This document shows positions 2-11,713 of a stretch of 11,713 nucleotides of DNA, piece after piece. Under the pieces are notes generated by a model. It had not been told where the DNA came from. It worked only from the letters and a program-made list of their open reading frames with translations, and made no database searches. The stretch is from the NCBI GenBank assembly GCA_030587475.2, contig JAUQYZ020000147.1, positions 1-11,713 of the forward strand, written 5' to 3'. How positions within the stretch are numbered: position 1 is the stretch's first letter; every line of letters starts with the position of its first letter. The translations under genes and the position numbers were made by a program. The stretch comes from Candidatus Sigynarchaeum calidifontis. Its GTDB lineage: Archaea; Asgardarchaeota; Lokiarchaeia; Sigyniarchaeales; Sigyniarchaeaceae.

Positions 2-91
2 GTCATAGACCCACAAGGAAACTGGGTGGTCAAGGTGCCCCACCAAGGCGAGCAGATGTTCGTCCACGATATTGAACTCGAGGGGTACTGA
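2..91 (+). CDS. C-terminal fragment of a carbon-nitrogen hydrolase (nitrilase superfamily), 5'-truncated by the window
   Basis: Not in the ORF track. Frame +2 reads VIDPQGNWVVKVPHQGEQMFVHDIELEGY* (TGA 89-91), which resembles the typical 'IIDPxG...E......DI' C-terminal strands of CN-hydrolases. Confidence 0.6.
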   Translation, partial: VIDPQGNWVVKVPHQGEQMFVHDIELEGY

Positions 92-110
92 AAAAGAAGT
101 CAAGAAAAAG
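91..110 (-). terminator. Oligo-T/pyrimidine-rich archaeal-type terminator of the CoA-transferase operon
   Basis: Minus strand reads CTTTTTCTTGACTTCTTTTT, starting 10 nt after the stop codon at 120. No hairpin. Confidence 0.5.
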
Positions 111-119
111 GGAGCGCGG

Positions 120-1301
120 TCAGATGACGTGCTTCCGTTTCAGCTTCTTGAACGTGTCCGCATCGATGCCGAGCAAGCCCGCGTAGATCTCTTCGTTATG
201 CTGGCCGAGATCGGGCGCCTTGGTGGCGATGTCCGCGGGGCTGTCGGAAAACTTGATGACGGGGTTGGGAAGGGTCGCTTTAGCCACGTTGTCGAACGTG
301 AACGAGCGGTTGAACATGCCGCGGGAGGCGAGCTGCTCGTCTTCCTGGATCTCGTCGATCTGCACGACGGGGCTGCATGGGATCCGGTTCTCGCGCATTA
401 TCTTCACGATCTCGTCGCGATCGTGCTTTTGCGTATATGCTTCAAGTACTTCATCAAGAAATTCGATGTGGTCCATGCGCTTCACGACGTTGGATAAGCG
501 CTCGTCGGATAACAAGTCCTCCCGCCCGATGACGCTCATGAGGCGCTTGAACTGGTTCTCCGTGATGGTCACGAGAACGACGCGCTTCCCGTCTTTCGTT
601 GGGTACTGGTTGTACGTCGGGAGAAGGCGCGACGTGAGGTCACGGTTCCTCGCCTTGTCCATGAACTCGTGAACCTGCGCCCGGATGTTCATGGAATACA
701 TCAAGTCCTGCATCGACACGTCGACGAATTGCCCCTTGCCCGTCCGCTCGCGGTGGAATAAAGCTTGCATGATGCCGACGCAGCACGCGAGGCCTGACGA
801 ATAATCCGCGAACGGGATGCGTGGCGTGCCCTCGGTGATGTTCGACGCGTGCATGATGCCACCGGCAGCCTGCGCGACCAGGTCGAACGCGGGAAGGTCT
901 GACCGGGGACCGGTCTGGCCGAAGCCAGAGATAGCGGCGTATATCAAGCGCGGGTTTTTTTCCTTGAGCACTTCGTAATCGACGCCCCAGCGCTTCATGG
1001 TGCCGGGAATGAAGTTTTCTAGCACGACATCGGCTTTCTCGACCAGTTTAAAGAAAATATCCCTGGCATCCGGCTGGCTAAGGTCGATGGTTATCGATTT
1101 CTTGTTCCGGTTGAGAATGGAGAACAAGGGAGACATTTGCTTGTCGAACATCGTGAATAATCGCATCGCCTCGCCATATGGAGGTACTTCGACCTTGATG
1201 ACTTCGGCGCCCTGGTCTGCGAGATACGTGGCGCAATATGGGCCGGATATGAATTGCGACAGGTCGAGGACGCGAATTCCTTGTAGTATTTTGCCAGGCA
1301 T
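120..1301 (-). CDS. Family III CoA-transferase (CaiB/BaiF/Frc family)
   Basis: 393 aa with the family motifs LQGIRVLDLSQFISGPY, LADQGAEVIKVE, NRNKKSITIDL, ADVVLENFIPG, ISGFGQTGP and C-terminal APDLGQHNEEI. A catalytic-Asp context is present (IPFADYSSG). Confidence 0.95.
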   Translation of the reverse strand: MPGKILQGIRVLDLSQFISGPYCATYLADQGAEVIKVEVPPYGEAMRLFTMFDKQMSPLFSILNRNKKSITIDLSQPDARDIFFKLVEKADVVLENFIPGTMKRWGVDYEVLKEKNPRLIYAAISGFGQTGPRSDLPAFDLVAQAAGGIMHASNITEGTPRIPFADYSSGLACCVGIMQALFHRERTGKGQFVDVSMQDLMYSMNIRAQVHEFMDKARNRDLTSRLLPTYNQYPTKDGKRVVLVTITENQFKRLMSVIGREDLLSDERLSNVVKRMDHIEFLDEVLEAYTQKHDRDEIVKIMRENRIPCSPVVQIDEIQEDEQLASRGMFNRSFTFDNVAKATLPNPVIKFSDSPADIATKAPDLGQHNEEIYAGLLGIDADTFKKLKRKHVI

Positions 1302-1314
1302 GGCATCATCTCGT

Positions 1315-1755
1315 TTACCAGTCTTTTAGCAGCCGCTTCAAATATTTTAAAATGTACCCGGCTGCCAGGGGATATCGCATGAGCTTGTTCATGGCACCCT
1401 CTATCTTGAAACGGCCGGTCATCATCGCTCGCGTGGGGTCGATTTCCCCCGTGACGAGGCCGTGCCACGCGGATTCTGGCGCGGTGATCGCGAATTCGTG
1501 GGGAGTGTCATCTCCATCCTTCAAGAACTTGGCAGAACGGCACTTGCCGTGCCACAAGTCGAGCCATAACTTGACGTCCTTCGTTATTTTTTTCCCCTCG
1601 GCCTTGAATACCAGCACCAAGGCGCCTTCCCACGTTTTCGCGCTTTTCTCGTAGTTCGGGTTGTTGTTCAAGCATTTTGCAAACTCATCAGCCCAGGCTT
1701 GCGTCTCGAATTGCATCTGTTCGCTCACGCGTGTCGTTGGTTGATTCTCGGTCAT
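1315..1755 (-). CDS. SCP2 sterol/lipid-binding domain protein (146 aa)
   Basis: Start reassigned to ATG 1755 (MTENQ...), which overlaps the upstream stop as ATGA. SCP2 features: WLDLWHGKCR and AWHGLVTGEIDPTRAMMTGRFKIEGAMNKLM. Confidence 0.88.
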   Translation of the reverse strand: MTENQPTTRVSEQMQFETQAWADEFAKCLNNNPNYEKSAKTWEGALVLVFKAEGKKITKDVKLWLDLWHGKCRSAKFLKDGDDTPHEFAITAPESAWHGLVTGEIDPTRAMMTGRFKIEGAMNKLMRYPLAAGYILKYLKRLLKDW

Positions 1756-2228
1756 AGTTCCGTCGGCAACTCGCTGTAGTAGCCGAATGCCATTATCCCC
1801 TTGACCACGTCTTGCACGTCTCGCAAGAAATCCTTGTAGGTCTCGGCAAACCGCTTCTTGAACAAGGGCAACAGCTCCTCCACGCATTCGTCGCTGAAGA
1901 TAACGCGCAGCGCGACGAAGTAAGAATCGATACCATGCTTCACCATGTCCTCCGTGGGCGACGCGAGGACCGCGAACCCGACCGCGAGCGTTTCCCCCTC
2001 CGCTCTCTTCCACTTCTCCTCCGCTGCCTTATAATACTGGGCCTGGAACATCCGGTTCATGAAGAGCCGGAACTTGAGTGTCGGGTCAAAGCTCATGAAG
2101 AATCGCCCAGATGATTCCATCTCTTCTTGGAAGGTCTGTAGCACGTGGTTTCGTGCCTCTGGAAAGCTGCCCGGGTAGGATATCTCGTGCTTTTCGAACA
2201 AGTCGACGACCTTGAGCACGGCGGGCAT
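1752..2228 (-). CDS. Hypothetical protein (158 aa), first gene of the operon
   Basis: Start reassigned to ATG 2228 (MPAVLKV...), preceded by a GAGGGG SD-like motif. Coding-like codon usage and ATGA coupling to the SCP2 gene. Confidence 0.75.
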   Translation of the reverse strand: MPAVLKVVDLFEKHEISYPGSFPEARNHVLQTFQEEMESSGRFFMSFDPTLKFRLFMNRMFQAQYYKAAEEKWKRAEGETLAVGFAVLASPTEDMVKHGIDSYFVALRVIFSDECVEELLPLFKKRFAETYKDFLRDVQDVVKGIMAFGYYSELPTEL

Positions 2229-2384
2229 CTCGATGCCCCTCGCGTCCGAGTAAATGCATAGATAGTTATTCAAGGGAGATCCGGATCGGATATCGCCCTA
2301 TCATCTTAAGAAGTTATTTATTGCGTTCGTTCGACATGTATGCTGATAACTCGCACCACCACGATCCGAACGTGATTTCGTGCC

Positions 2385-3269
2385 ATGGACAGCATGCTCG
2401 ATCCTTTCACGTTAGTACCACCCGAGTATCGCGCTAGCGAGAGCACGATTGCGATACTTGGTGATAGCACGAGTTTATTGGAAACGATAAAGCCCGACTG
2501 CATCGACCTCGTCTTCGCCGACCCGCCGTACAACATCGGGAAGGAGTTCGAGAAGAAGATCGCACGGGACGTGTACATCACGTGGTGCAAGGGCTGGATC
2601 GACCAGTGCATGCGGGTCTTGAAGCCGACGGGCACCATGTACCTCATGGCGGCCACGCAATTCTTGCCGTACCTCGACATCCACGTGAGCGAAAAGTGGA
2701 TGGTGAGATCACGCATCGTGTGGCATTACGATAGTTCCGGAGTGCAGGCACGACGCCATTTCGGTTCCATGTACGAGCCCATCCTCATGATCGTCAAGGA
2801 CGAGGAATCGTACAAGTTCAACGCCGAGGCAGTCATGGTCGAGGCGCGTAGCGGTGCCGTCCGAAAGCTTATCGATTACCGAAAAACCCCGCCACAGCCA
2901 TATAGCAATAAAAAGGTCATGGGAAACGTCTGGGAGATCCCGCGCGTCAGGTTCAAGATGCCCGAGTACGAGAACCACGGCACGCAAAAGCCCGAGCGGT
3001 TGCTCGAGATCCCGCTGCTCGCGTCGACGGATCCCGGCGACATCGTGCTCGATCCGTTTGCCGGCAGCTTCACCACGTGCGCTGTCGCGCAGCGGCTCGG
3101 CCGGAAATCCATTGGTATCGAGATCAACGAGGAGTATTTCAAAATGGGATTGCGACGGCTCGGCCTCGCGACGGAATACAAGGGCGAGCGCCTCGTGAAG
3201 GTCAAATCGAGAAAGACGAACAACAAGTCCAAAAAGGATCACGAAAAGGATGGGCAAGCCGACAGATGA
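2385..3269 (+). CDS. yhdJ: Adenine-specific DNA methyltransferase, beta class, YhdJ-like
   Basis: The catalytic DPPY motif precedes the SAM-binding VLDPFAGSFTT (beta order). Long segments that I recall matching E. coli YhdJ: SRIVWHYDSSGVQA, GSMYEPILM, LIDYRKTPPQPY, GNVW..PRVR..M.EYENH.TQKPE and GIEIN.EY.KMGLRRL. Confidence 0.92.
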   Translation: MDSMLDPFTLVPPEYRASESTIAILGDSTSLLETIKPDCIDLVFADPPYNIGKEFEKKIARDVYITWCKGWIDQCMRVLKPTGTMYLMAATQFLPYLDIHVSEKWMVRSRIVWHYDSSGVQARRHFGSMYEPILMIVKDEESYKFNAEAVMVEARSGAVRKLIDYRKTPPQPYSNKKVMGNVWEIPRVRFKMPEYENHGTQKPERLLEIPLLASTDPGDIVLDPFAGSFTTCAVAQRLGRKSIGIEINEEYFKMGLRRLGLATEYKGERLVKVKSRKTNNKSKKDHEKDGQADR

Positions 3270-3294
3270 CGTGAAAGCATGAACGTGAAAGAAA

Positions 3295-3325
3295 GGATCG
3301 TGGCAGCGCTGGATCGTGGCAGCGC
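3295..3325 (+). repeat. Tandem direct repeat GGATCGTGGCAGCGC x2 (16-nt period)
   Basis: Exact 15-nt copies at 3295-3309 and 3311-3325. Confidence 0.85.
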
Positions 3326-3465: not shown

Positions 3466-4815
3466 TTACTGTTCTAACCGGGAACCGCGGTGCAACTTCG
3501 CAACGACCTTTCGTGCGATGAAGAGCACGCCACAAAAGCTTACTATGAAGATGGCCACGGTTGATGGCCCGTCCACGCCGGGTGTCGAACCCGTAACCGT
3601 GATAACCGTGAATTTCGTGACCATGGCATTCGATAAAGGCATGTCGGTAGATGACGCATTCGTCCCGCCGCAGCATACCACGATGTCCCCGGAAATGGCT
3701 ATGTCCTTTGCGCAATCAAACCTCGATCCACCCCAGGTAGTGTCACCGAGCAAGTTGCCATCACCATCGTATTTCGCGATGAATGCTTGCGAGTCCGTTG
3801 ATGGATTGGAGGTTCTGCTGCAAGTTTGCCCGACAATGTAGACCCCGCTGCTGTCGCATGCCAAGGCATAGGCATAGTCGTCTTCCACGCCGCCCCACGT
3901 CACGCTCCAGGCCTCCGAGCAGGTCATATCGAGCTTGACCAGGAAAGCCTCCGTTTTTTTCGCGGTGTCGTTGCAATACCCGCATATGTAATATGACGTG
4001 CCAGAGATGGCGAACCCGGTGCAAACCTCGTTCCGCGTGCTGCTACCCCATGTCACCCACCCGAATGACGAGTTGGCCGGGTAAAACTCGCCGATGATAA
4101 TATCGCGAGATAACGTGGTGCCGTTGGTGATCGTTCCCGCGACGATGATGCGAGTGCCGCTCGTGGCTATATGGTCAAATTGCTCGTTGTTGCCCAGGTC
4201 AAGCGAAGCATTCATGATGCTCGAGAGCGTGCTGTTGAACTTCATGATCGTCGCGTTTTGCGCGTTTGAACCGGCATCCACGTAACCACAGACATAAATA
4301 TCCGAGCCGACGATGGCGAGATCAAGAGGGACTTCGTTGCGAACGTGATCTCCCCATTCGATGGACATTCCCCCGCTGTAGTTGGCATCATAACTGGTGA
4401 GAAGCCCGTGTTCGGTTGAGAAAGATGAACCTAGATGAGCTACGTCGTACAAATTCCCGCCACTCTGCACGATCGACTCTGGAACTCGCCACGCATCAGG
4501 TCCATTATTCGTGAGCGGTGAGGCACGCTCCAAGACACCATCCATGCTGTATTTTGCGTAGAAGGCCCCACTGTAGCTATTCACGGGTTCCTGGCCGGTA
4601 CCTGCCAGGAAAATCTTCTGGTTGTAGATCAAAACGGTCTCGTACAAGTCTTGCTTGTTGCCGTCGAATACCTTGCTCCATTGCTGGGAAAATGATGTTG
4701 TCGTGCTGGATGGCGCGATTCCAGATGCTGTACTTGAAACCATAACTAGCATAACGAGAAACATGAACGAACCCGTTACACTCGTCAACCGAATCGTTGT
4801 TTTGGATGAATTCAT
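3466..4815 (-). CDS. Secreted, membrane-anchored beta-propeller repeat (SBBP-like) surface protein
   Basis: Likely start ATG 4815 (MNSSKTT...) after an AGGGGT SD-like motif. N-terminal hydrophobic signal (FMFLVMLVMV) and repeated blades such as WSVTWGGVEDDYAYALACDSSGVYIVGQT and TTWGGSRFDCAKDIAISGDIVVCCG. The C-terminus is Thr/Pro/Gly-rich, then a transmembrane helix and basic tail. Confidence 0.85.
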   Translation of the reverse strand: MNSSKTTIRLTSVTGSFMFLVMLVMVSSTASGIAPSSTTTSFSQQWSKVFDGNKQDLYETVLIYNQKIFLAGTGQEPVNSYSGAFYAKYSMDGVLERASPLTNNGPDAWRVPESIVQSGGNLYDVAHLGSSFSTEHGLLTSYDANYSGGMSIEWGDHVRNEVPLDLAIVGSDIYVCGYVDAGSNAQNATIMKFNSTLSSIMNASLDLGNNEQFDHIATSGTRIIVAGTITNGTTLSRDIIIGEFYPANSSFGWVTWGSSTRNEVCTGFAISGTSYYICGYCNDTAKKTEAFLVKLDMTCSEAWSVTWGGVEDDYAYALACDSSGVYIVGQTCSRTSNPSTDSQAFIAKYDGDGNLLGDTTWGGSRFDCAKDIAISGDIVVCCGGTNASSTDMPLSNAMVTKFTVITVTGSTPGVDGPSTVAIFIVSFCGVLFIARKVVAKLHRGSRLEQ

Positions 4816-4968
4816 CCTTGACCCCTTTCTTCTTTTCGTATCGTGATATGAGGGATATGTTGTCCACGGTGCATCTCTTATACCCAAAATGGTTTTATCG
4901 CATAACACCGGGAAGGTGAAAGACGGAAATCTTCAATCAGTAAAACATGAACCGCGATTATGCGCGCA

Positions 4969-5738
4969 TCACAGCCCCAGCGCTGCCAGCTCGGCCTTGG
5001 TCGACCTGGCCTTCCCCGGCGTGATGTCGAACACGCGCCACATGCACAGGCACCCGGCCAGGTAGAACAGCGCGGGCACGGCCATCATCTGCACCCGAAG
5101 CCCCCAGAGAGCGATGTCGGTTTGCAACGCTGCATCGGGGTCAAATCCAGAGATGGCATGGATGATACCAAAGGTCAGGGCTTGAATGACGACGGATAAC
5201 CGACCGAAAAACGTCCGAAACCCGTAAAAGATGCCTTCGTTTCTCGATTTCATCTTCACGACCATCTCGTCGATGACGTCCGAGAACGTCGGTGCCATGA
5301 GCGTCCACGGGGCGCTCAAGGCCATTCCCCGGATGAAAGCGCCGGCGATCGCGAACGACACGTCCCGAGCCACGCGAACACGGCCCAATCGAAGCCGAGC
5401 GGTGGCGTGAAGATGAAAGTGAAGGCGACCGCGCAAGGGATGGCCGTGCACATGAACCACGGGAAGCGGCGGCCCCAGCGCGCCGTGAACCGCGTCGGGC
5501 GGTCGGAGATGTACCCGACCAGCGGGTCGTTGAACATGTTCCAGATGCCATAGATGACGAACGCCGTGGCGAGGAAGATGTTGGGGAGGAGGACCTCGTT
5601 CTCGTAAAAGGCATACACCCGCACGGAAAAAGCGGTCAAGAGGAAATCATCGAGGAAACTCCCGCAACCGTAGGAAAAATGGATTTTCGATGGATGCCGG
5701 GTCTCTTTTGTCTCGGCAACGGGGCCGGTCATGATCAT
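4969..5738 (-). pseudogene. GPH-family (MelB/UidB-like) MFS sugar:cation symporter with internal deletion and frameshift
   Basis: The N-terminal part (frame of ORF 5316..5738) has SYGCG, IWNMFNDPLVGYISDR and WGRRFPW. The C-terminal part (frame of ORF 4969..5460) has FSDVIDE, RNEGIFYG and VPALF. Together they give about 255 aa versus about 450 aa expected. The frame switches near 5360-5370. Confidence 0.82.
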
Positions 5739-5870: not shown

Positions 5871-7502
5871 TTGGTGACCATCGACATCAACTCGATAAAG
5901 GACGACCTGTCGGGGCCATGGTGGCATCTGGTTTCGGCTACAGATTTTCATTTCCTCGAAACCATCAACACGACTGGTTCCGGACAAGCAGTCGTTGAAG
6001 GCGACGTGCTCGTGCACAAGCAAGTCTTGCCAGGGGAACAATACCCTTCGATCAGATATCACGTGGTGGGACAAGGCGGCTCGACGCGGCTAGCGACCAA
6101 CCAGGAGGTGAAAGAGCTTCTCGGTAAATCACTGCTCGCGTTCATCGAGAAAACGAACCACTTGCCACCGAATTGCAAGTTCTCCAAGCGGTTCAAGAAC
6201 GGCTCGGTCCAGATCGATTTCGAGCCCCACAAGAACGTGAAGTTCGCGCTGAAGATCGTGCCGGCCGACAGCAAGGTGGCAGACCTGGACGCGCGGATAG
6301 AAACGATGCCATCGGGACCCGTGGCACTTGCACAAACGGCACCCGTGAAGGGGCAAGCCGCCGATGCAAGCGCTGAAGCTGGCGGGGCGGCCACGATGGT
6401 GCCAGCCAAGCAAGCGGCTGCCAAGGACGACCTGGCAATCCCGAAGCACATCGCGAAGATCCAGGACAGCCTGGCGCTCATCGACGGGATCGTCGAGGCT
6501 GTCGAAAAACGAACGAGCACCTTCCAGGATAATGTGGTCACGTATTACATGCTCACGATCCGCGATGCTATCGTCGGTCTCGGGGAAAAGGATCCTATCG
6601 GGTATCCAGTGAGCGTGATAAAGGCACGCTTGTCGGAAAATAAGATGCTGCGTAAAAAGATCCAGCCGGGCATGTATCTTTCCATGCGGGGGAAATTCGA
6701 ACCACACGGGAACGACGGGTTTGCGATCAAGTACGCGCGTGGCGTCACCACGAGAAAAACCAAGAAAAAAAACGTGTCGATAGCATCCCCGGAAATGGTC
6801 TCGGCGCTGCTCAAGAGGACGGACAAGGTTGTCCAGGCGCCCGCCTGGAACAGTCGTGGCGGCGTCCACGGCTATTACCGCGATCACGAAGATGATTACT
6901 ACGACGAAAACGACGACTATTACGATGATGATGATGAGATCGGCGATTATCGCGGCGGGTATGGCCCGCGCAGGTCGTACCCGCCATGGTGGAACAGGCC
7001 GGTGGACCGCGCGGCGAGCATCCACGACGTCTCGGGCACGCCGCTGGAGGCCGTGTTCGGCCACATGGATCAAAAAGTGCGCCGCAAGATCACGAGGGCG
7101 ATCAACATGCTCAGGAGTCAACGCAACATGCTCTTCATCAAGAGCGAGAAGACCGCGGTGCACGGCATCGTGAGGTCCCAGAGCCACGCGGGAACCGAGT
7201 ACGCGACGTGCATCGGCGAAGGTGGCAAGTACTATTGCGTGTCGAACACGCTGAGCCCGTGCCTCGGGCTCCAGGGGACGATCTGCAAGCACGTGCTCCT
7301 CACGATCATCGCCGCGGCGAAGGACGGCAAGGTCGATCGAGCCGCGTTGACCGCCTGGATACAAGCGGCACTGTCGCAATGGCCACGGCTCGACGAGACA
7401 GAAGCGGTATCGATCTTCACCGAGTACAAGAGCGGACCGCTAGAAATCGGCATGGATTGGCGCCAGGTGGAAGTCCTTCCCGAGGATTTCGTCGCGTTTT
7501 GA
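5871..7502 (+). CDS. Multidomain protein with C-terminal SWIM-type zinc finger, putative central OB-fold and acidic/RGG linker
   Basis: 543-aa ORF with strong coding bias. The C-terminal region is GIVRSQS...YATCI...YYCVSNTLSPCLGLQGTICKHVL...DWRQVEVLPEDF (C-x7-C-x7-C-K-H). Ala-rich and Asp/Tyr-rich linkers separate the domains. Confidence 0.85.
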   Translation: MVTIDINSIKDDLSGPWWHLVSATDFHFLETINTTGSGQAVVEGDVLVHKQVLPGEQYPSIRYHVVGQGGSTRLATNQEVKELLGKSLLAFIEKTNHLPPNCKFSKRFKNGSVQIDFEPHKNVKFALKIVPADSKVADLDARIETMPSGPVALAQTAPVKGQAADASAEAGGAATMVPAKQAAAKDDLAIPKHIAKIQDSLALIDGIVEAVEKRTSTFQDNVVTYYMLTIRDAIVGLGEKDPIGYPVSVIKARLSENKMLRKKIQPGMYLSMRGKFEPHGNDGFAIKYARGVTTRKTKKKNVSIASPEMVSALLKRTDKVVQAPAWNSRGGVHGYYRDHEDDYYDENDDYYDDDDEIGDYRGGYGPRRSYPPWWNRPVDRAASIHDVSGTPLEAVFGHMDQKVRRKITRAINMLRSQRNMLFIKSEKTAVHGIVRSQSHAGTEYATCIGEGGKYYCVSNTLSPCLGLQGTICKHVLLTIIAAAKDGKVDRAALTAWIQAALSQWPRLDETEAVSIFTEYKSGPLEIGMDWRQVEVLPEDFVAF

Positions 7503-7528
7503 CGGCACGCTTGTATCATCCTCGCATT

Positions 7529-7549
7529 GAAATAGAAAAGGAGAGAAAG
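7529..7549 (-). terminator. Pyrimidine-rich terminator-like tract on the minus strand
   Basis: Minus strand reads CTTTCTCTCCTTTTCTATTTC, 14 nt after the TAG at 7563-7565. Confidence 0.4.
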
Positions 7550-7562
7550 TTTCTGGCACCTA

Positions 7563-7785
7563 CTAGACGAGCGTGAAAGACACGTCCACGCGGATCTCGG
7601 CTGGCAATGGCGGGAACGGCAGGAATGCTGGCATCCAAAACACATGGATGGCATGATATCGTGGCCCGGGCGGGATGATGGTGAACCCTCTCGGATAGGA
7701 GGCCCCGGGAGGCGTGGTGTACCCCACCCCGCCGCCCGTGCGGAGCACGCTGGCGCCGACCTCGACGCCGATCTCGCGTGACCAT
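7563..7785 (-). pseudogene. Small frameshifted ORF or gene remnant of unknown function
   Basis: The frame reading EIGVEVGASVLRTGGGVGYTTPPGASYPRGFTIIPPG...EIRVDVSFTLV* mostly has G/C-ending codons. The nearest ATG (7785) is 1 nt out of frame, and an in-frame GTG lies at 7748. A T-rich tract follows. Confidence 0.4.
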
Positions 7786-7874
7786 GAATGCGTCGGGGTT
7801 CGAGTCGAAGGTTAAAAACAAGCCCCTGACGGGCTGCAAATCGCGAAAACATTTTTTACATGATCGATGGCGCC

Positions 7875-7899
7875 GAAAAAGAGGGAAAAAACAGAGAAA
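7875..7899 (-). terminator. Oligo-T terminator after the ParM-like gene
   Basis: Minus strand reads TTTCTCTGTTTTTTCCCTCTTTTTC, about 40-60 nt downstream of the stop at 7936. Confidence 0.55.
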
Positions 7900-7935
7900 C
7901 TCATGAACGGGGCCGTCGACGTTCTCGGGCCCGGA

Positions 7936-8982
7936 TCATTCATCCTTGTCGCCGGCGCGGTCCCGGACGACGAGCTCGAAACCCATGGCATTGCTCATGA
8001 CCGGGTCGGGCGGGATGAAGCAGTCCTCTGGCTTGGCAATCATCTTCATCTGGGCGAGGGCCTTCTGGATGAACGGGCCGAAGATGTAGGCACCACCACC
8101 GCAACACACGTAAAGTTCCACGAACGAGTCGGGTGGCATGAAGCCGATGAGGCGGGCGGCCTCGTCGACCATGATCTTGGAGATCTGCTCGGCGTAGTAG
8201 TTCTTGACGTCCTTGATGCTGAAGGTCTCGCCGCCAATCATGACCGAGTCGCGGCCGAGCTCGATGGATTTCATGAGCTCGTATGGCCGGACGTACTTGC
8301 CGGTCTGGTCGTTGAGCTTTTTCGAGATGCGGTTCGTGAGCGTGTCCGTCGCCTCGTTGAGCGAGCCCGAGGATTGACGCATGGGGCGGCCCTGGTACAT
8401 GGCGAGAAAGTCGGTGCTGCCGTGGCCGATGTCGATAAGCACGGCGTCGATGGCGACGTCGACCTTGCGCTCCTTCAACGTCCAATAATAAGTTCCGTAC
8501 GGCTCGGGAATCACGACAGCCTTCTTTACATTCACCGTGAGCTGTCGCTTCTCGCCGGTCGCGTCGTTACGGCACTTTATCTCGTGCGTGCCCTTCAAGA
8601 GCCTCGATAGCTCTTTCATTTCATTCATCGGGGTCGCGACGGGCACGCCGACGCCGATGATGAATTCATCGCCATCCTCGGCAATGTTCACAAGGGACGA
8701 TTTCAACGCGATAAAGGCATTCTCGGCGGATTTCATTTTCCCCTCGGACACCAGGGGGTATTTAATCTCGGATTGGGTGCGGGCGAGCTCGCCGACGAAA
8801 TACTCCTTGCCGTCATGTTCCATAACCAGATTATTAATTAGGCTCTTATCCGTGCTCATCCCTGTCCATCCCTCGCTGACATCGCCGATCATAGAGATCA
8901 TCTTGAATTTTTTCGTCCCATTTTCGAACGAAGTTTTTAAACTCGACGTCCCGAGGTCCATCCCTGCATATTTCAATGGCAT
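7936..8982 (-). CDS. ParM/StbA-family actin-like ATPase (348 aa)
   Basis: Start reassigned to ATG 8982 (MPLKYAGMDLG) after a GGTGA SD. All five actin-fold motifs are present: phosphate-1 GMDLGTSSLK, connect-1 VIPEPYGTYY, phosphate-2 LIDIGHGSTD, adenosine CGGGA and connect-2 DPVMSNAMGF. The ParM/Alp-typical YFVGELA and IGVGVP segments are also present. Confidence 0.92.
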   Translation of the reverse strand: MPLKYAGMDLGTSSLKTSFENGTKKFKMISMIGDVSEGWTGMSTDKSLINNLVMEHDGKEYFVGELARTQSEIKYPLVSEGKMKSAENAFIALKSSLVNIAEDGDEFIIGVGVPVATPMNEMKELSRLLKGTHEIKCRNDATGEKRQLTVNVKKAVVIPEPYGTYYWTLKERKVDVAIDAVLIDIGHGSTDFLAMYQGRPMRQSSGSLNEATDTLTNRISKKLNDQTGKYVRPYELMKSIELGRDSVMIGGETFSIKDVKNYYAEQISKIMVDEAARLIGFMPPDSFVELYVCCGGGAYIFGPFIQKALAQMKMIAKPEDCFIPPDPVMSNAMGFELVVRDRAGDKDE

Positions 8983-9419
8983 ATCATGTTCACCATGTTG
9001 TTTTCGGTTCGAGTGATCCGATCGTGTTCCAAATGATCTCACGTTGCTGCGAATTAAAATCTTAATTGCTGACGCTCCCGGCTTGCCTTTATCGTCCCGT
9101 GATCCCGCGACCGCACGCACTGCTCGGGGTGAATGGCAAGTTCACCCGCCGAGTCCAGCCATCCGATCATGGATGGAAATTACAGCGCGATCCAACCCCG
9201 GCACATCTACAAGGAACGTGCCTCACGAGATGGCCATGAAACAAGTCGGGGGCATGCCGTGTCCCGGAAATTGCAGCCATTTCCGGCGAATAGGACACGC
9301 GCATCGGTATATGGAACCACACGGAAATCGTCCTCACGTTACATTAGAGAACCTTCTTGGTCTGTCACGGTGCTGGATAGCGCGCAAGCTACGAATGCGG
9401 GAGAAAATCACCTAGAAAT

Positions 9420-10892
9420 TCACTGGTGTTTCTTTTTCTTTGTCTGAGGAAAATCCCGCATCCATGCCTCCCACAAGTTTATGATTCCTGATACACGGGG
9501 TGTTTCTGGGGGAGCGGGGCGGTATGAAATTTCACCATCGTCGAAATCGATGTCCTCGATTTGGCTCCACTCGATCGTGGGTTCCCGCGTCTCTGGATCG
9601 ACATAGAAAGTTACGCCGGCATTAAGAGGATCAATGGGGTACTTGCACGCGTCCAGCTCGAATGAGCCTACACGGGGCCCGATATCCTCTTCTTGGAGGA
9701 AACGGATCTCGAAATAATACTTTCCTTTATCTTCTTGTGACTCTGGATCGGACACGTACTGGATGTTCGAGACACCCCAAAATTCGTTAACGACGAGCAG
9801 CATGTTAAAGCTATCCAGCGCACCCGAACTGGCGAGGTGTGGGTACACCATCGCAACGCCTAGATCCCGGTTGTCTGGTCCTAGTTCCTCCGAGAATGCA
9901 ATTCCAGCCAAGAAACGAAGGGTCATGAGGTCGATAGGGCGCGGGACCCCTCGTGACACGTCAGAAGTGACGAGCCACGGGAGCCCTTGTTTGGCGGCAT
10001 CCCAGATTGCTTGCCAGCGTTGTAAAATCCCATCGAGCACGCGCTCGTTTACATGGATGGAAAAACCACTTTCTTTACCGGAAGGAATCGTTCTGAGAAG
10101 GAGATCGTTTGGATCGCAAGCCGAGCCTTTTCCATCGGCGGTAATCCCTTGGCTCTTGCACAAATTGTCAAGATGGTTGCTGAAGTTTTGAATCTGAATG
10201 ATCATTTTCGTCGTGAAATTTTTAGTCGACAACGGAGTAAAGTAATCAAGAAGGAACTGCATTACCGCATACGAATCCCTGATCCATTTGTTATACAACT
10301 CTGTGGACACGGTTCCCCGGGCATTGACCAGTGCTTTCGCTTCCGAATCGCTCCCGATGATACCGGTCGGAGCCAATCGGGCCACGTCGTCGCGAATCGA
10401 CTGGCCAAACATCATCATCGCGCGACCGTGGGCTTCGACGACGTGATTTAAATAGAATTGGTAAACCTTTTCCTTGATCTCGTTAATAGCACGAGATATA
10501 ACATCTATCGTTTCTTTACTCCCCTTCAATTTGGTGAGTGCCTTCACGGGAAATAGTAACGTCATCTTGATTTCGAAAGTAACTGGATCAAGGCCGAGCT
10601 GGTTGAAGAGAGCCCTTAATCGCTCGTCATCCACCGGGCTTATCACGACCTCACGTCTTTCAAACTGCGAATTGACGAATGTTTTGAATCCTGGCACGAC
10701 CGGGTCGTCTGGGTCATCACAATCCGAAAATCGCGTCATCAGCCAATCCTCAGGGGTGCCTTTCTCCACGGCGTGATGTGTTATTAGACTAAACAAGAGA
10801 TCGGCTTGGATAGAAAGCGGGATCAACCGGTTATGCAGCAAGTCGTCGCTGACATCCTCGAGTGTCGCAACCTCTCGCTTGCCTGGTTTCAT
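9420..10892 (-). CDS. Hypothetical protein (490 aa), no recognisable domain
   Basis: Long uninterrupted ORF with ATGA overlap (10889-10892) with the LRR gene. No obvious signal peptide or transmembrane segment. Confidence 0.8.
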   Translation of the reverse strand: MKPGKREVATLEDVSDDLLHNRLIPLSIQADLLFSLITHHAVEKGTPEDWLMTRFSDCDDPDDPVVPGFKTFVNSQFERREVVISPVDDERLRALFNQLGLDPVTFEIKMTLLFPVKALTKLKGSKETIDVISRAINEIKEKVYQFYLNHVVEAHGRAMMMFGQSIRDDVARLAPTGIIGSDSEAKALVNARGTVSTELYNKWIRDSYAVMQFLLDYFTPLSTKNFTTKMIIQIQNFSNHLDNLCKSQGITADGKGSACDPNDLLLRTIPSGKESGFSIHVNERVLDGILQRWQAIWDAAKQGLPWLVTSDVSRGVPRPIDLMTLRFLAGIAFSEELGPDNRDLGVAMVYPHLASSGALDSFNMLLVVNEFWGVSNIQYVSDPESQEDKGKYYFEIRFLQEEDIGPRVGSFELDACKYPIDPLNAGVTFYVDPETREPTIEWSQIEDIDFDDGEISYRPAPPETPRVSGIINLWEAWMRDFPQTKKKKHQ

Positions 10893-11515
10893 CGCATTCG
10901 CCTCTTGAGTGGTTTCACGACGACACTCGCATCGTTATAATATTTGTCGGCGAGCATCGTAAAGAGCCCTGGAATTTCATCGTTCAATTCGATATCACGG
11001 AAGGTGCCAGGGTGTTGACCTTGCTTGCGCAAATCCAGGGTTACAAGATTGCTCAGATCACCGAGACCCTCGATTTCATGTATCTGATTGTTTCGTAACG
11101 AGAGGTGCTTGAGCTTGACGAGCTTCTGAAGCCCTTCAATGCGAGATATGTTGTTCGAATCGAGCCAGAGCGACTCTAAATTCACCAGTGAATCCAAATT
11201 CTCGATCTTCCCGATTTTGTTGTGAGTCAAGGATAGCTCCTTCAAATTAACGAGCTTGTCGAGGCCCTCGATCCGCTTGATCTCATTCGAGTTAAGCCAC
11301 AACGAGCGTAAATGCACGAAACGGTCGAGTCCCTCGATACAAGTGATTTTATTACCGGTCAAGCATAACTCTTCCAGCTTTGGAAGCGCTTCGATGCCTT
11401 TGATGTCGGTAATTCGTTCTATGTCTTTGCAGAAGAGAAAAAGATGCCTTGCATCATCAGTTACCTCCGCGATGACGCTCCCCTTGTATTGAATAACGAG
11501 ACTCTCCGCTACCAT
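10889..11515 (-). CDS. Leucine-rich repeat protein (SDS22-like 22-aa repeats)
   Basis: Tandem LxxLxLxxNxIxxIEGLxxLxx repeats, e.g. LRSLWLNSNEIKRIEGLDKLVN and LKELSLTHNKIGKIENLDSLVN. Start is probably ATG 11515 (MVAESLV), although the frame stays open to the window end. Confidence 0.92.
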   Translation of the reverse strand: MVAESLVIQYKGSVIAEVTDDARHLFLFCKDIERITDIKGIEALPKLEELCLTGNKITCIEGLDRFVHLRSLWLNSNEIKRIEGLDKLVNLKELSLTHNKIGKIENLDSLVNLESLWLDSNNISRIEGLQKLVKLKHLSLRNNQIHEIEGLGDLSNLVTLDLRKQGQHPGTFRDIELNDEIPGLFTMLADKYYNDASVVVKPLKRRMR

Positions 11516-11542
11516 GTTGATCTCTTCTCTTTTGCCGGCAAT

Positions 11543-11551
11543 CTTAAAAAA
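11543..11551 (-). promoter_or_regulatory. Putative TATA box (TTTTTTAAG) for the LRR-hypothetical operon
   Basis: About 28-36 nt upstream of ATG 11515, consistent with archaeal spacing for a short-leader transcript. Confidence 0.45.
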
Positions 11552-11713
11552 CCAACCTATTGAACGCAGAGATTGATCATTGAGATCGCTTAATGATGCG
11601 CGAGCGCGTGGAGAATTAAAAATGATAACCCAATGGCACGGCACCATCGCCGCCATCGCGACCATCATCTCCGGTCTCGCGGAGTGATGTAGGAGCTTCT
11701 TTTCCTCCAGCAT

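Follow-up and report, generated by a model that had tools for sequence, protein, structure and literature searches.

The actin-like gene of the DNA stretch analysed here (the window, 11,713 bp) encodes ALP-A, an actin-fold ATPase of the ParM/StbA type and not of the Lokiactin or crenactin type. The absence of an adaptor is true only for the ALP-A locus and not for the genome. On a separate contig, C252, we found a 445-aa protein whose C-terminal tail is predicted to dock in the cleft of ALP-A that corresponds to the ParR-binding cleft of ParM. The explanation that we favour, with moderate confidence, is a working ALP-A filament that is coupled to its cargo by this trans-encoded tail adaptor. 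The ALP-A module is ParMR-like, and it has no ribbon-helix-helix (RHH) domain, no parC and no linkage between its genes.

The ALP-A gene and its chromosomal setting

The window is the entire contig C84 of a 4.99-Mb MAG (269 contigs, 89% complete). No rRNA gene that could anchor its taxonomy is assembled in the genome. The GC content and tetranucleotide use of the window match those of the bin, and positions 21-3313 show synteny with a congener's 20-kb contig and, in part, with the 3.7-Mb single contig of a relative. The ALP-A gene is chromosomal. The features of the window are as follows.

Left of ALP-A, within the syntenic block: family III CoA-transferase, SCP2 protein and N6 DNA methyltransferase (Pfam, NCBIfam)
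3466-4908, minus strand: surface-type protein of 480 aa, with a hydrophobic segment at the N-terminus, a stretch rich in Ser/Thr, a weak match to the delta-60 repeat and a TM helix at the C-terminus
4969-5738, minus strand: MFS_2 transporter fragments (profile positions 1-102 at 5316-5738 and 311-426 at 4969-5460)
5871-7502, plus strand: unclassified 543-aa protein, convergent on ALP-A, with a Tyr/Asp-rich low-complexity stretch
7503..7935, no strand: gene-free spacer 3' of ALP-A, where the sister clade has its adaptor gene
7876..7891, minus strand: oligo-T runs T6 (7891-7886) and T5 (7880-7876), 45-60 nt past the ALP-A stop (sequence reading)
7936..8982, minus strand: ALP-A, 348-aa ParM/Alp-family actin-fold ATPase (Pfam, PHROG, motifs, model)
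8983..9419, no strand: spacer 5' of ALP-A, with no credible ORF and no repeat array
8990..8994, minus strand: Shine-Dalgarno-like GGTGA, 7 nt 5' of the ALP-A ATG (sequence reading; putative function)
9053..9060, minus strand: A/T-rich box ATTTTAAT, 71-78 nt 5' of the ALP-A ATG (sequence reading)
9420-10892, minus strand: 490-aa orphan, 5' of ALP-A
10889-11713, minus strand: leucine-rich-repeat protein, 5' of the 490-aa orphan

The start of ALP-A is the first in-frame ATG of its ORF, and its position is identical in the orthologues. Alignment A1, which has 36 rows, was used for the motifs and the AlphaFold2 model. The box ATTTTAAT is possibly an archaeal TATA element and, as such, a candidate promoter of ALP-A's own; the spacer 5' of the gene is not conserved in an 84%-identical orthologue. 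The oligo-T runs are likely to be an archaeal terminator, and an additional stem-loop with a T-run lies at 7835-7821, 3' of ALP-A. A near-perfect palindrome at 9264-9286 (11-nt arms CCGGAAATTGC / GCCATTTCCGG, 1-nt spacer), about 280-300 nt 5' of the ALP-A start, may be a regulator binding site.

Searches around the gene for a classical partition cassette were negative. A parC-like iteron array was absent from positions 7400-9500, which hold just short two- or three-copy chance repeats, and no Rfam family matched the window. None of the small ORFs in the two spacers of about 435 bp is protein-like, and their composition ruled them out as ParR candidates. The adaptor HMM and tblastn found nothing significant in the window that could be an adaptor remnant 3' of ALP-A. 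Pfam and NCBIfam gave no RHH match on contig C84, and together with PHROGs they gave no plasmid or virus replication or partition family among the neighbours of ALP-A and no integrase or capsid gene on the contig.

The neighbouring genes are varied. The 480-aa protein is probably located at the cell surface, as judged from its segments; at orthologous actin loci of relatives (L008, L011 and L032), large membrane or surface proteins that are mutually unrelated also adjoin the actin gene. Congener G001 (contig C69) has approximately 645 bp more between the two MFS_2 parts, and the MFS_2 gene of the window is therefore a pseudogene with an internal deletion. The 543-aa protein has no Pfam match, and its C-terminus is weakly similar to SWIM-type zinc-finger domains (Atlas structure, TM 0.77 by target). 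The start of the 490-aa gene overlaps the stop of the leucine-rich-repeat gene by 4 nt, so the two probably form one operon. The 490-aa gene was considered as an adaptor and rejected, because it is unmatched in 300 other Asgard genomes, Pfam and PHROGs, has no Atlas neighbours, and lacks both an RPKL-type tail and profile similarity to the adaptor family. The 50 nt that follow the methyltransferase gene match G001 twice but do not represent a repeat family in the genome studied here.

Profile searches place ALP-A among the actin-like proteins of the ParM group. It scores 73.6 bits against Pfam ALP_N (PF17989, cut-off 26.3) and 44.3 bits against MreB-like_C (PF21522, cut-off 27.8), but only 18.5 bits against Actin (PF00022), which is under the cut-off of 27. 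The NCBIfam models PRTRC_D, FcmB and ParM match it below their cut-offs, and its top HMM match is PHROG 691, 'partition protein' (1e-38). All nucleotide-binding motifs are conserved in A1: phosphate-1 (DLGTSSLK, with D9, G11 and K16), connect-1 (GVPV, 112-115), the catalytic Glu (E160 in PEPYG), phosphate-2 (DIGHGSTD, 184-191), the adenosine motif (GGGA, 295-298) and connect-2 (SNAMGFE). Full-length alignments to ALP-A were obtained for 1118 plasmid ParM/StbA genes, at 23-25% identity, and for a few Bacillus phage partition genes.

The AlphaFold2 model of ALP-A (pLDDT 90.7, pTM 0.88) leads to the same group. In a Foldseek search of the PDB, the first ranks were taken by Alp7A, pCBH ParM, Ta0583, CorM, pSK41 ParM, B. 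thuringiensis ParM and Dh-cParM1, with E values of 1e-19 to 1e-17 for Alp7A, the ParMs, Ta0583 and CorM. MamK, BeeR, MreB and then eukaryotic actin followed these Alps. By sequence, only Dh-cParM1, CorM and pCBH ParM were matched in the PDB (phmmer, E 0.01). ALP-A was placed among the named actins by these HMM, PDB-sequence and fold rankings. The same genome encodes a Lokiactin-type actin (436 bits to PF00022) and ARPs, and ALP-A is therefore an additional actin-fold system.

Homologues of ALP-A with 44-89% identity are nearly all labelled as Asgard (Lokiarchaeia/Promethearchaeota, Hel-, Heimdall-, Thor- and Njordarchaeota), and some are located on Mb contigs and on two complete Heimdallarchaeum chromosomes. 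The related loci were recovered by an alignment-based scan; a single-protein query gave none. When the phylum was sampled evenly, 54 of 301 Asgard genomes had a member of the family. Some taxonomic families have it as a fixed gene (26/28, 11/11 with three copies, 6/7 and 5/5), but it is rare in the order of the present genome, with 2/68 and 0/7 in two families. The ALP-A family is an Asgard-only, chromosomal branch of the ParM/Alp actin-like ATPases.

Much of what the sequence-only reading had said about the gene itself was borne out. The actin-fold ATPase motifs that it had called intact are all present and conserved in A1, and the Shine-Dalgarno sequence and oligo-T terminator that it had assigned to the gene can be read as GGTGA and the T6/T5 runs, whose functions are putative. 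It had seen no adjacent RHH gene, iterons or replication genes, and contig C84 has none. Its Asgard chromosomal context agrees with the Asgard homologues, the synteny of the flank and the Lokiactin-type gene in the genome, and the distinction that it drew from crenactin and the Asgard actins agrees with the PF00022 score and the fold ranking.

A candidate tail-bearing adaptor on another contig

The genes downstream of the actin were surveyed at 80 ALP-A-family loci from species genomes. At nine loci of the sister clade, a protein of 394-429 aa ending in RPKLDDMLD..IV.E is encoded 82-182 bp 3' of the actin gene. At two further sister-clade loci the adaptor is interrupted by the contig end, and all loci of this clade with enough sequence have it. 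In genome G198, for example, a 55%-identical ALP-A orthologue has a 34%-identical paralogue as its head-to-head neighbour and is followed by a 429-aa protein ending RPKLDDMLDNVIVSE; this pairing of actin and adaptor recurs in G253. An ML tree rooted on the paralogues places the clade of ALP-A as sister to the RPKLDDML-linked clade (SH-aLRT 92). The clade of ALP-A itself comprises four loci, and an adjacent adaptor is found at none of them.

A search with the sister-clade adaptors detected a 445-aa homologue in the genome of ALP-A, with the tail RPKLSEMLDSVIVED. Two loci of this genome outside the window are relevant to ALP-A.

C252:7038-10464 (L022), plus strand: trio of genes for a 126-aa protein, a protein of about 458/459 aa and the 445-aa adaptor (C252:9127-10464, plus strand)
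C3:3700-4809 (L017), minus strand: ALP-B, a 37%-identical actin paralogue with degenerate motifs

The 445-aa adaptor can be aligned from end to end with the linked adaptors, and the RPKL..ML tail is invariant among them. A protein named from Candidatus Sigynarchaeum springense shares 94% identity with the 445-aa adaptor. In the adaptor model, an alpha-helical repeat domain (44-280) is followed by a long linker of low confidence and, at the end, a short helix; there is no RHH domain. The fold search gave just weak alpha-solenoid matches (Sec17/alpha-SNAP, CNOT9 and TPR; E 0.02-0.1), so we make no family claim for the adaptor. In the trio, the protein of about 458/459 aa combines a coiled coil with three RWD/E2-like repeats and a C1/RING-like zinc finger. 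A congener and the 3.7-Mb contig of a relative (G312) also carry this conserved trio.

Given the contig geometry, the adaptor gene is at least about 12 kb away from ALP-A. Because the two genes are on separate contigs of a MAG (C84 and C252), their membership in one cell rests on binning; the composition of both contigs agrees with one bin. Genomes G000 and G002 and an assembly with the locus-tag prefix ACTSUE each have ALP-A and the adaptor, and in G002 and the ACTSUE assembly the two genes are apart, as they are here.

We also observed, in a Heimdallarchaeota subclade, an overlapping gene for 195-243 aa located 3' of the actin gene, whose product ends in RPSLDDAIGAI(V/I)(V/I)VE (e.g. RPSLDDAIGAIVVVE). 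It occurs at the loci L068, L077, L078, L081, L082, L086, L088, L091, L093, L095, L106 and L107. On the basis of its tail, which shares the RP.LDD core, we regard it as a second, putative type of adaptor.

Docking of the tail was predicted by a co-fold of ALP-A and residues 340-445 of the adaptor, both supplied with their alignments, alongside three controls. The pair scored 0.78 (runs 0.78, 0.64 and 0.79; best control 0.10) and passed a mark attained by 58 of the 80 solved complexes and by 2 of the 110 mismatched pairs, although, since peptide complexes of ParM-ParR and CorM-CorR have been solved, a pass may show likeness to these and not the affinity of this pair. The runs had at least 73% of contacts in common, with a partner pLDDT of at least 53. 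Only the last 18 residues of the adaptor (428-445) contact ALP-A, at residues 119-130, 154-170, 174-179, 197-199, 285-289 and 338-342. In the model, the tail is positioned between helices and strands of the subdomains IA (119-170, 338-342) and IIA (174-199, 285-289). In ParM, a 17-residue ParR peptide binds between IA and IIA (PMC3794156), and the C-terminal peptide of CorR is required for the recruitment of CorM (10.1101/2025.06.27.661541). The adaptor tail is thus predicted by the model to dock in the IA/IIA cleft of ALP-A, which is the ParR-binding cleft of ParM. The cleft residues are 61-68% identical to those of adaptor-linked orthologues, compared with 51-54% for the remaining protein.

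The paralogue ALP-B lacks the catalytic Glu (YGPYG) and has DIGFGSAE as phosphate-2 and GDGV as adenosine motif; judging from these motifs, ALP-B is probably a pseudo-ATPase. Its orthologue is head to head with ALP-A in G198, G039 and Helarchaeota loci. The ALP-B gene of the present genome stands alone, next to a CxxCxxCC-domain gene.

Filament, adaptor and alternative explanations

Polymerisation, binding in the cell and cargo are what we infer for ALP-A, as follows. By analogy with its solved relatives ParM, Alp7A and CorM, ALP-A would bind ATP and polymerise. The 445-aa protein from C252 would couple the filament to cargo in trans, its tail RPKLSEMLDSVIVED entering the IA/IIA cleft as in the co-fold model. 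Actin and adaptor would be a pair whose genes are adjacent in the sister clade and unlinked in the clade of ALP-A. The lack of an RHH domain in the adaptor, and of parC, makes a protein or membrane assembly a more probable cargo than DNA.

The most serious alternative, which we consider distinctly less probable, is that ALP-A is a truly stand-alone filament with no dedicated or recognisable adaptor, and that the C252 protein serves another partner in this clade, such as ALP-B, Lokiactin or an E2/RWD complex. A tail-bearing gene within 450 bp is absent from most Heimdall-group orthologues, also from those on complete chromosomes, and the genes that flank ALP-A at the four loci of its own clade are mutually unrelated. 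In addition, G312, a 3.7-Mb single contig, keeps the adaptor trio, and neither single-protein nor profile searches detected an actin of the ALP-A family there. G312 was reached via an adaptor-search locus and is possibly the same assembly as G003 of family f1. In the phylum sample, 4 of 15 adaptor-bearing genomes are without an ALP-A-family actin, and in G001 we saw the paralogue ALP-B only and no ALP-A. The adaptor, which is kept without the actin in these genomes, is therefore not strictly dependent on ALP-A. This alternative nevertheless sits poorly with four observations: the predicted cleft is more conserved than the rest of ALP-A, the tail is invariant in linked and unlinked adaptors alike, the predicted complex passes its controls, and three assemblies (G000, G002 and ACTSUE) each encode both genes.

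These observations also bear on the sequence-only reading, which had described ALP-A as stand-alone. An adaptor-less ALP-A is not supported, given the linkage in the sister clade, the homologue on C252 and the predicted docking of the tail. The proposal in that reading of a domesticated filament system with a non-canonical adaptor stands insofar as the gene is chromosomal and under selection and a candidate non-RHH adaptor exists; that it polymerises is something we infer. That reading had also considered a plasmid or provirus with a ParR encoded elsewhere. A candidate partner does exist on another contig, but it is non-RHH, and the contig is neither a plasmid nor a provirus. The comparison of synteny across Asgard genomes that it had suggested revealed a syntenic left flank and the adjacency of actin and adaptor in the sister clade.

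It is improbable that ALP-A is a non-polymerising actin-fold ATPase acting as an enzyme or regulator. Actin-fold proteins do include kinases and chaperones, and filament formation is a presumed property of the Asgard ALP-A family members. The strong structure and sequence neighbours of ALP-A, however, are all filament formers (Alp7A, the ParMs and CorM, then MamK, BeeR, MreB and actin), and neither a sugar kinase nor an Hsp70 appeared within the Foldseek top 50. A peptide-binding cleft and a tail-bearing partner are, moreover, hallmarks of cytomotive ParM systems.

Least probable of all is that ALP-A remains from an integrated partition cassette of a plasmid or virus, with ParR and parC lost, and is now a decaying or neutral passenger in a variable island: the right two thirds of contig C84 (from about 3.3 kb) are absent from congener G001, the neighbours of ALP-A are orphans, a DNA methyltransferase and the MFS transporter pseudogene lie nearby and the best HMM match is a phage family, but ALP-A is under purifying selection with intact motifs (dN 0.12 to the 84%-identical orthologue with saturated synonymous sites, dN/dS approximately 0.04), its orthologue in another genus lies near the same SCP2 and methyltransferase genes, the family is found Asgard-wide on chromosomes with at most 23-25% identity to plasmid or phage genes, and the contig carries no integrase, replication or capsid gene.

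Relation to known systems and significance

The working filament with a trans-encoded adaptor, our preferred reading, has its closest counterparts in the ParMRC systems (R1 ParM/ParR, pSK41, pCBH and Alp7A) and the cParMs (Dh-cParM1, PDB 8x1i; PMC12270681), with which ALP-A shares the fold, the nucleotide motifs and ALP_N. In ParMRC, the C-terminal peptide of the partner occupies the IA/IIA cleft (PDB 4A62), and the same is predicted for ALP-A. In contrast to ParMRC, ALP-A is only 23-25% identical and comes with no RHH ParR, parC iterons or plasmid. The candidate adaptor also differs from ParR: it has 445 aa, consists of alpha-helical repeats and a long disordered linker, and is encoded on another contig.

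The CorMR system of multicellular cyanobacteria (10.1101/2025.06.27.661541; PDB 9rmi; NCBIfam FcmB) is a chromosomal ParM derivative, and CorM is among the best matches of ALP-A. CorR has lost DNA binding and uses its C-terminal peptide to recruit the filament; it has kept the (RHH)2 fold, carries a membrane-binding amphipathic helix, and its gene adjoins corM (10.1101/2025.06.27.661541). The Asgard adaptor, by contrast, has an unrelated fold, its gene is not linked to that of the actin, and the system belongs to an archaeal lineage.

Ta0583 of Thermoplasma acidophilum (PDB 2fsj/2fsk/2fsn; PF21522) is, like ALP-A, an archaeal chromosomal ParM-like actin with no known ParR. ALP-A exceeds the PF21522 cut-off and superimposes on the Ta0583 structures with a TM by target of 0.77-0.82 (2fsj, 2fsk, 2fsn), but their sequences are too dissimilar for phmmer at E 0.01. 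The Asgard ALP-A family has tail-bearing adaptors of its own and a pseudo-ATPase paralogue; to our knowledge, neither has been reported for Ta0583. Lokiactin, the Asgard ARPs and crenactin share the actin fold, and actins of this kind are present in the same genome; they belong to another family, and actins rank below the Alps in the fold search with ALP-A.

Work on the Asgard cytoskeleton has centred on Lokiactin and its eukaryote-like regulators. Our literature searches turned up no paper on ParM-type actins in Asgard archaea and none describing the Asgard module of ALP-A and RPKL-tail adaptor. A bolder extension of the preferred reading, which we regard as doubtful, is a second, ParM-derived Asgard cytoskeleton, in which ALP-A filaments would be steered by the non-DNA-binding tail adaptor together with the RWD/E2-zinc-finger protein and the pseudo-ATPase paralogue, all encoded in this lineage by dispersed genes acting in trans. 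A partition motor of prokaryotes would on this view be linked to ubiquitin-like or scaffold machinery in the closest relatives of eukaryotes.

Since an actin and its adaptor can be unlinked, the absence of a neighbouring partner does not mean the absence of a partner, and the tail motif RP[KS]L.. offers a practical genome-wide handle on such partners. An Asgard case would parallel CorMR, in which a partition machine has become a cell-shape cytoskeleton. If the preferred reading is correct, the lineage nearest to eukaryotes would possess, in a conserved chromosomal ParM-like family with non-RHH adaptors, a second filament system.
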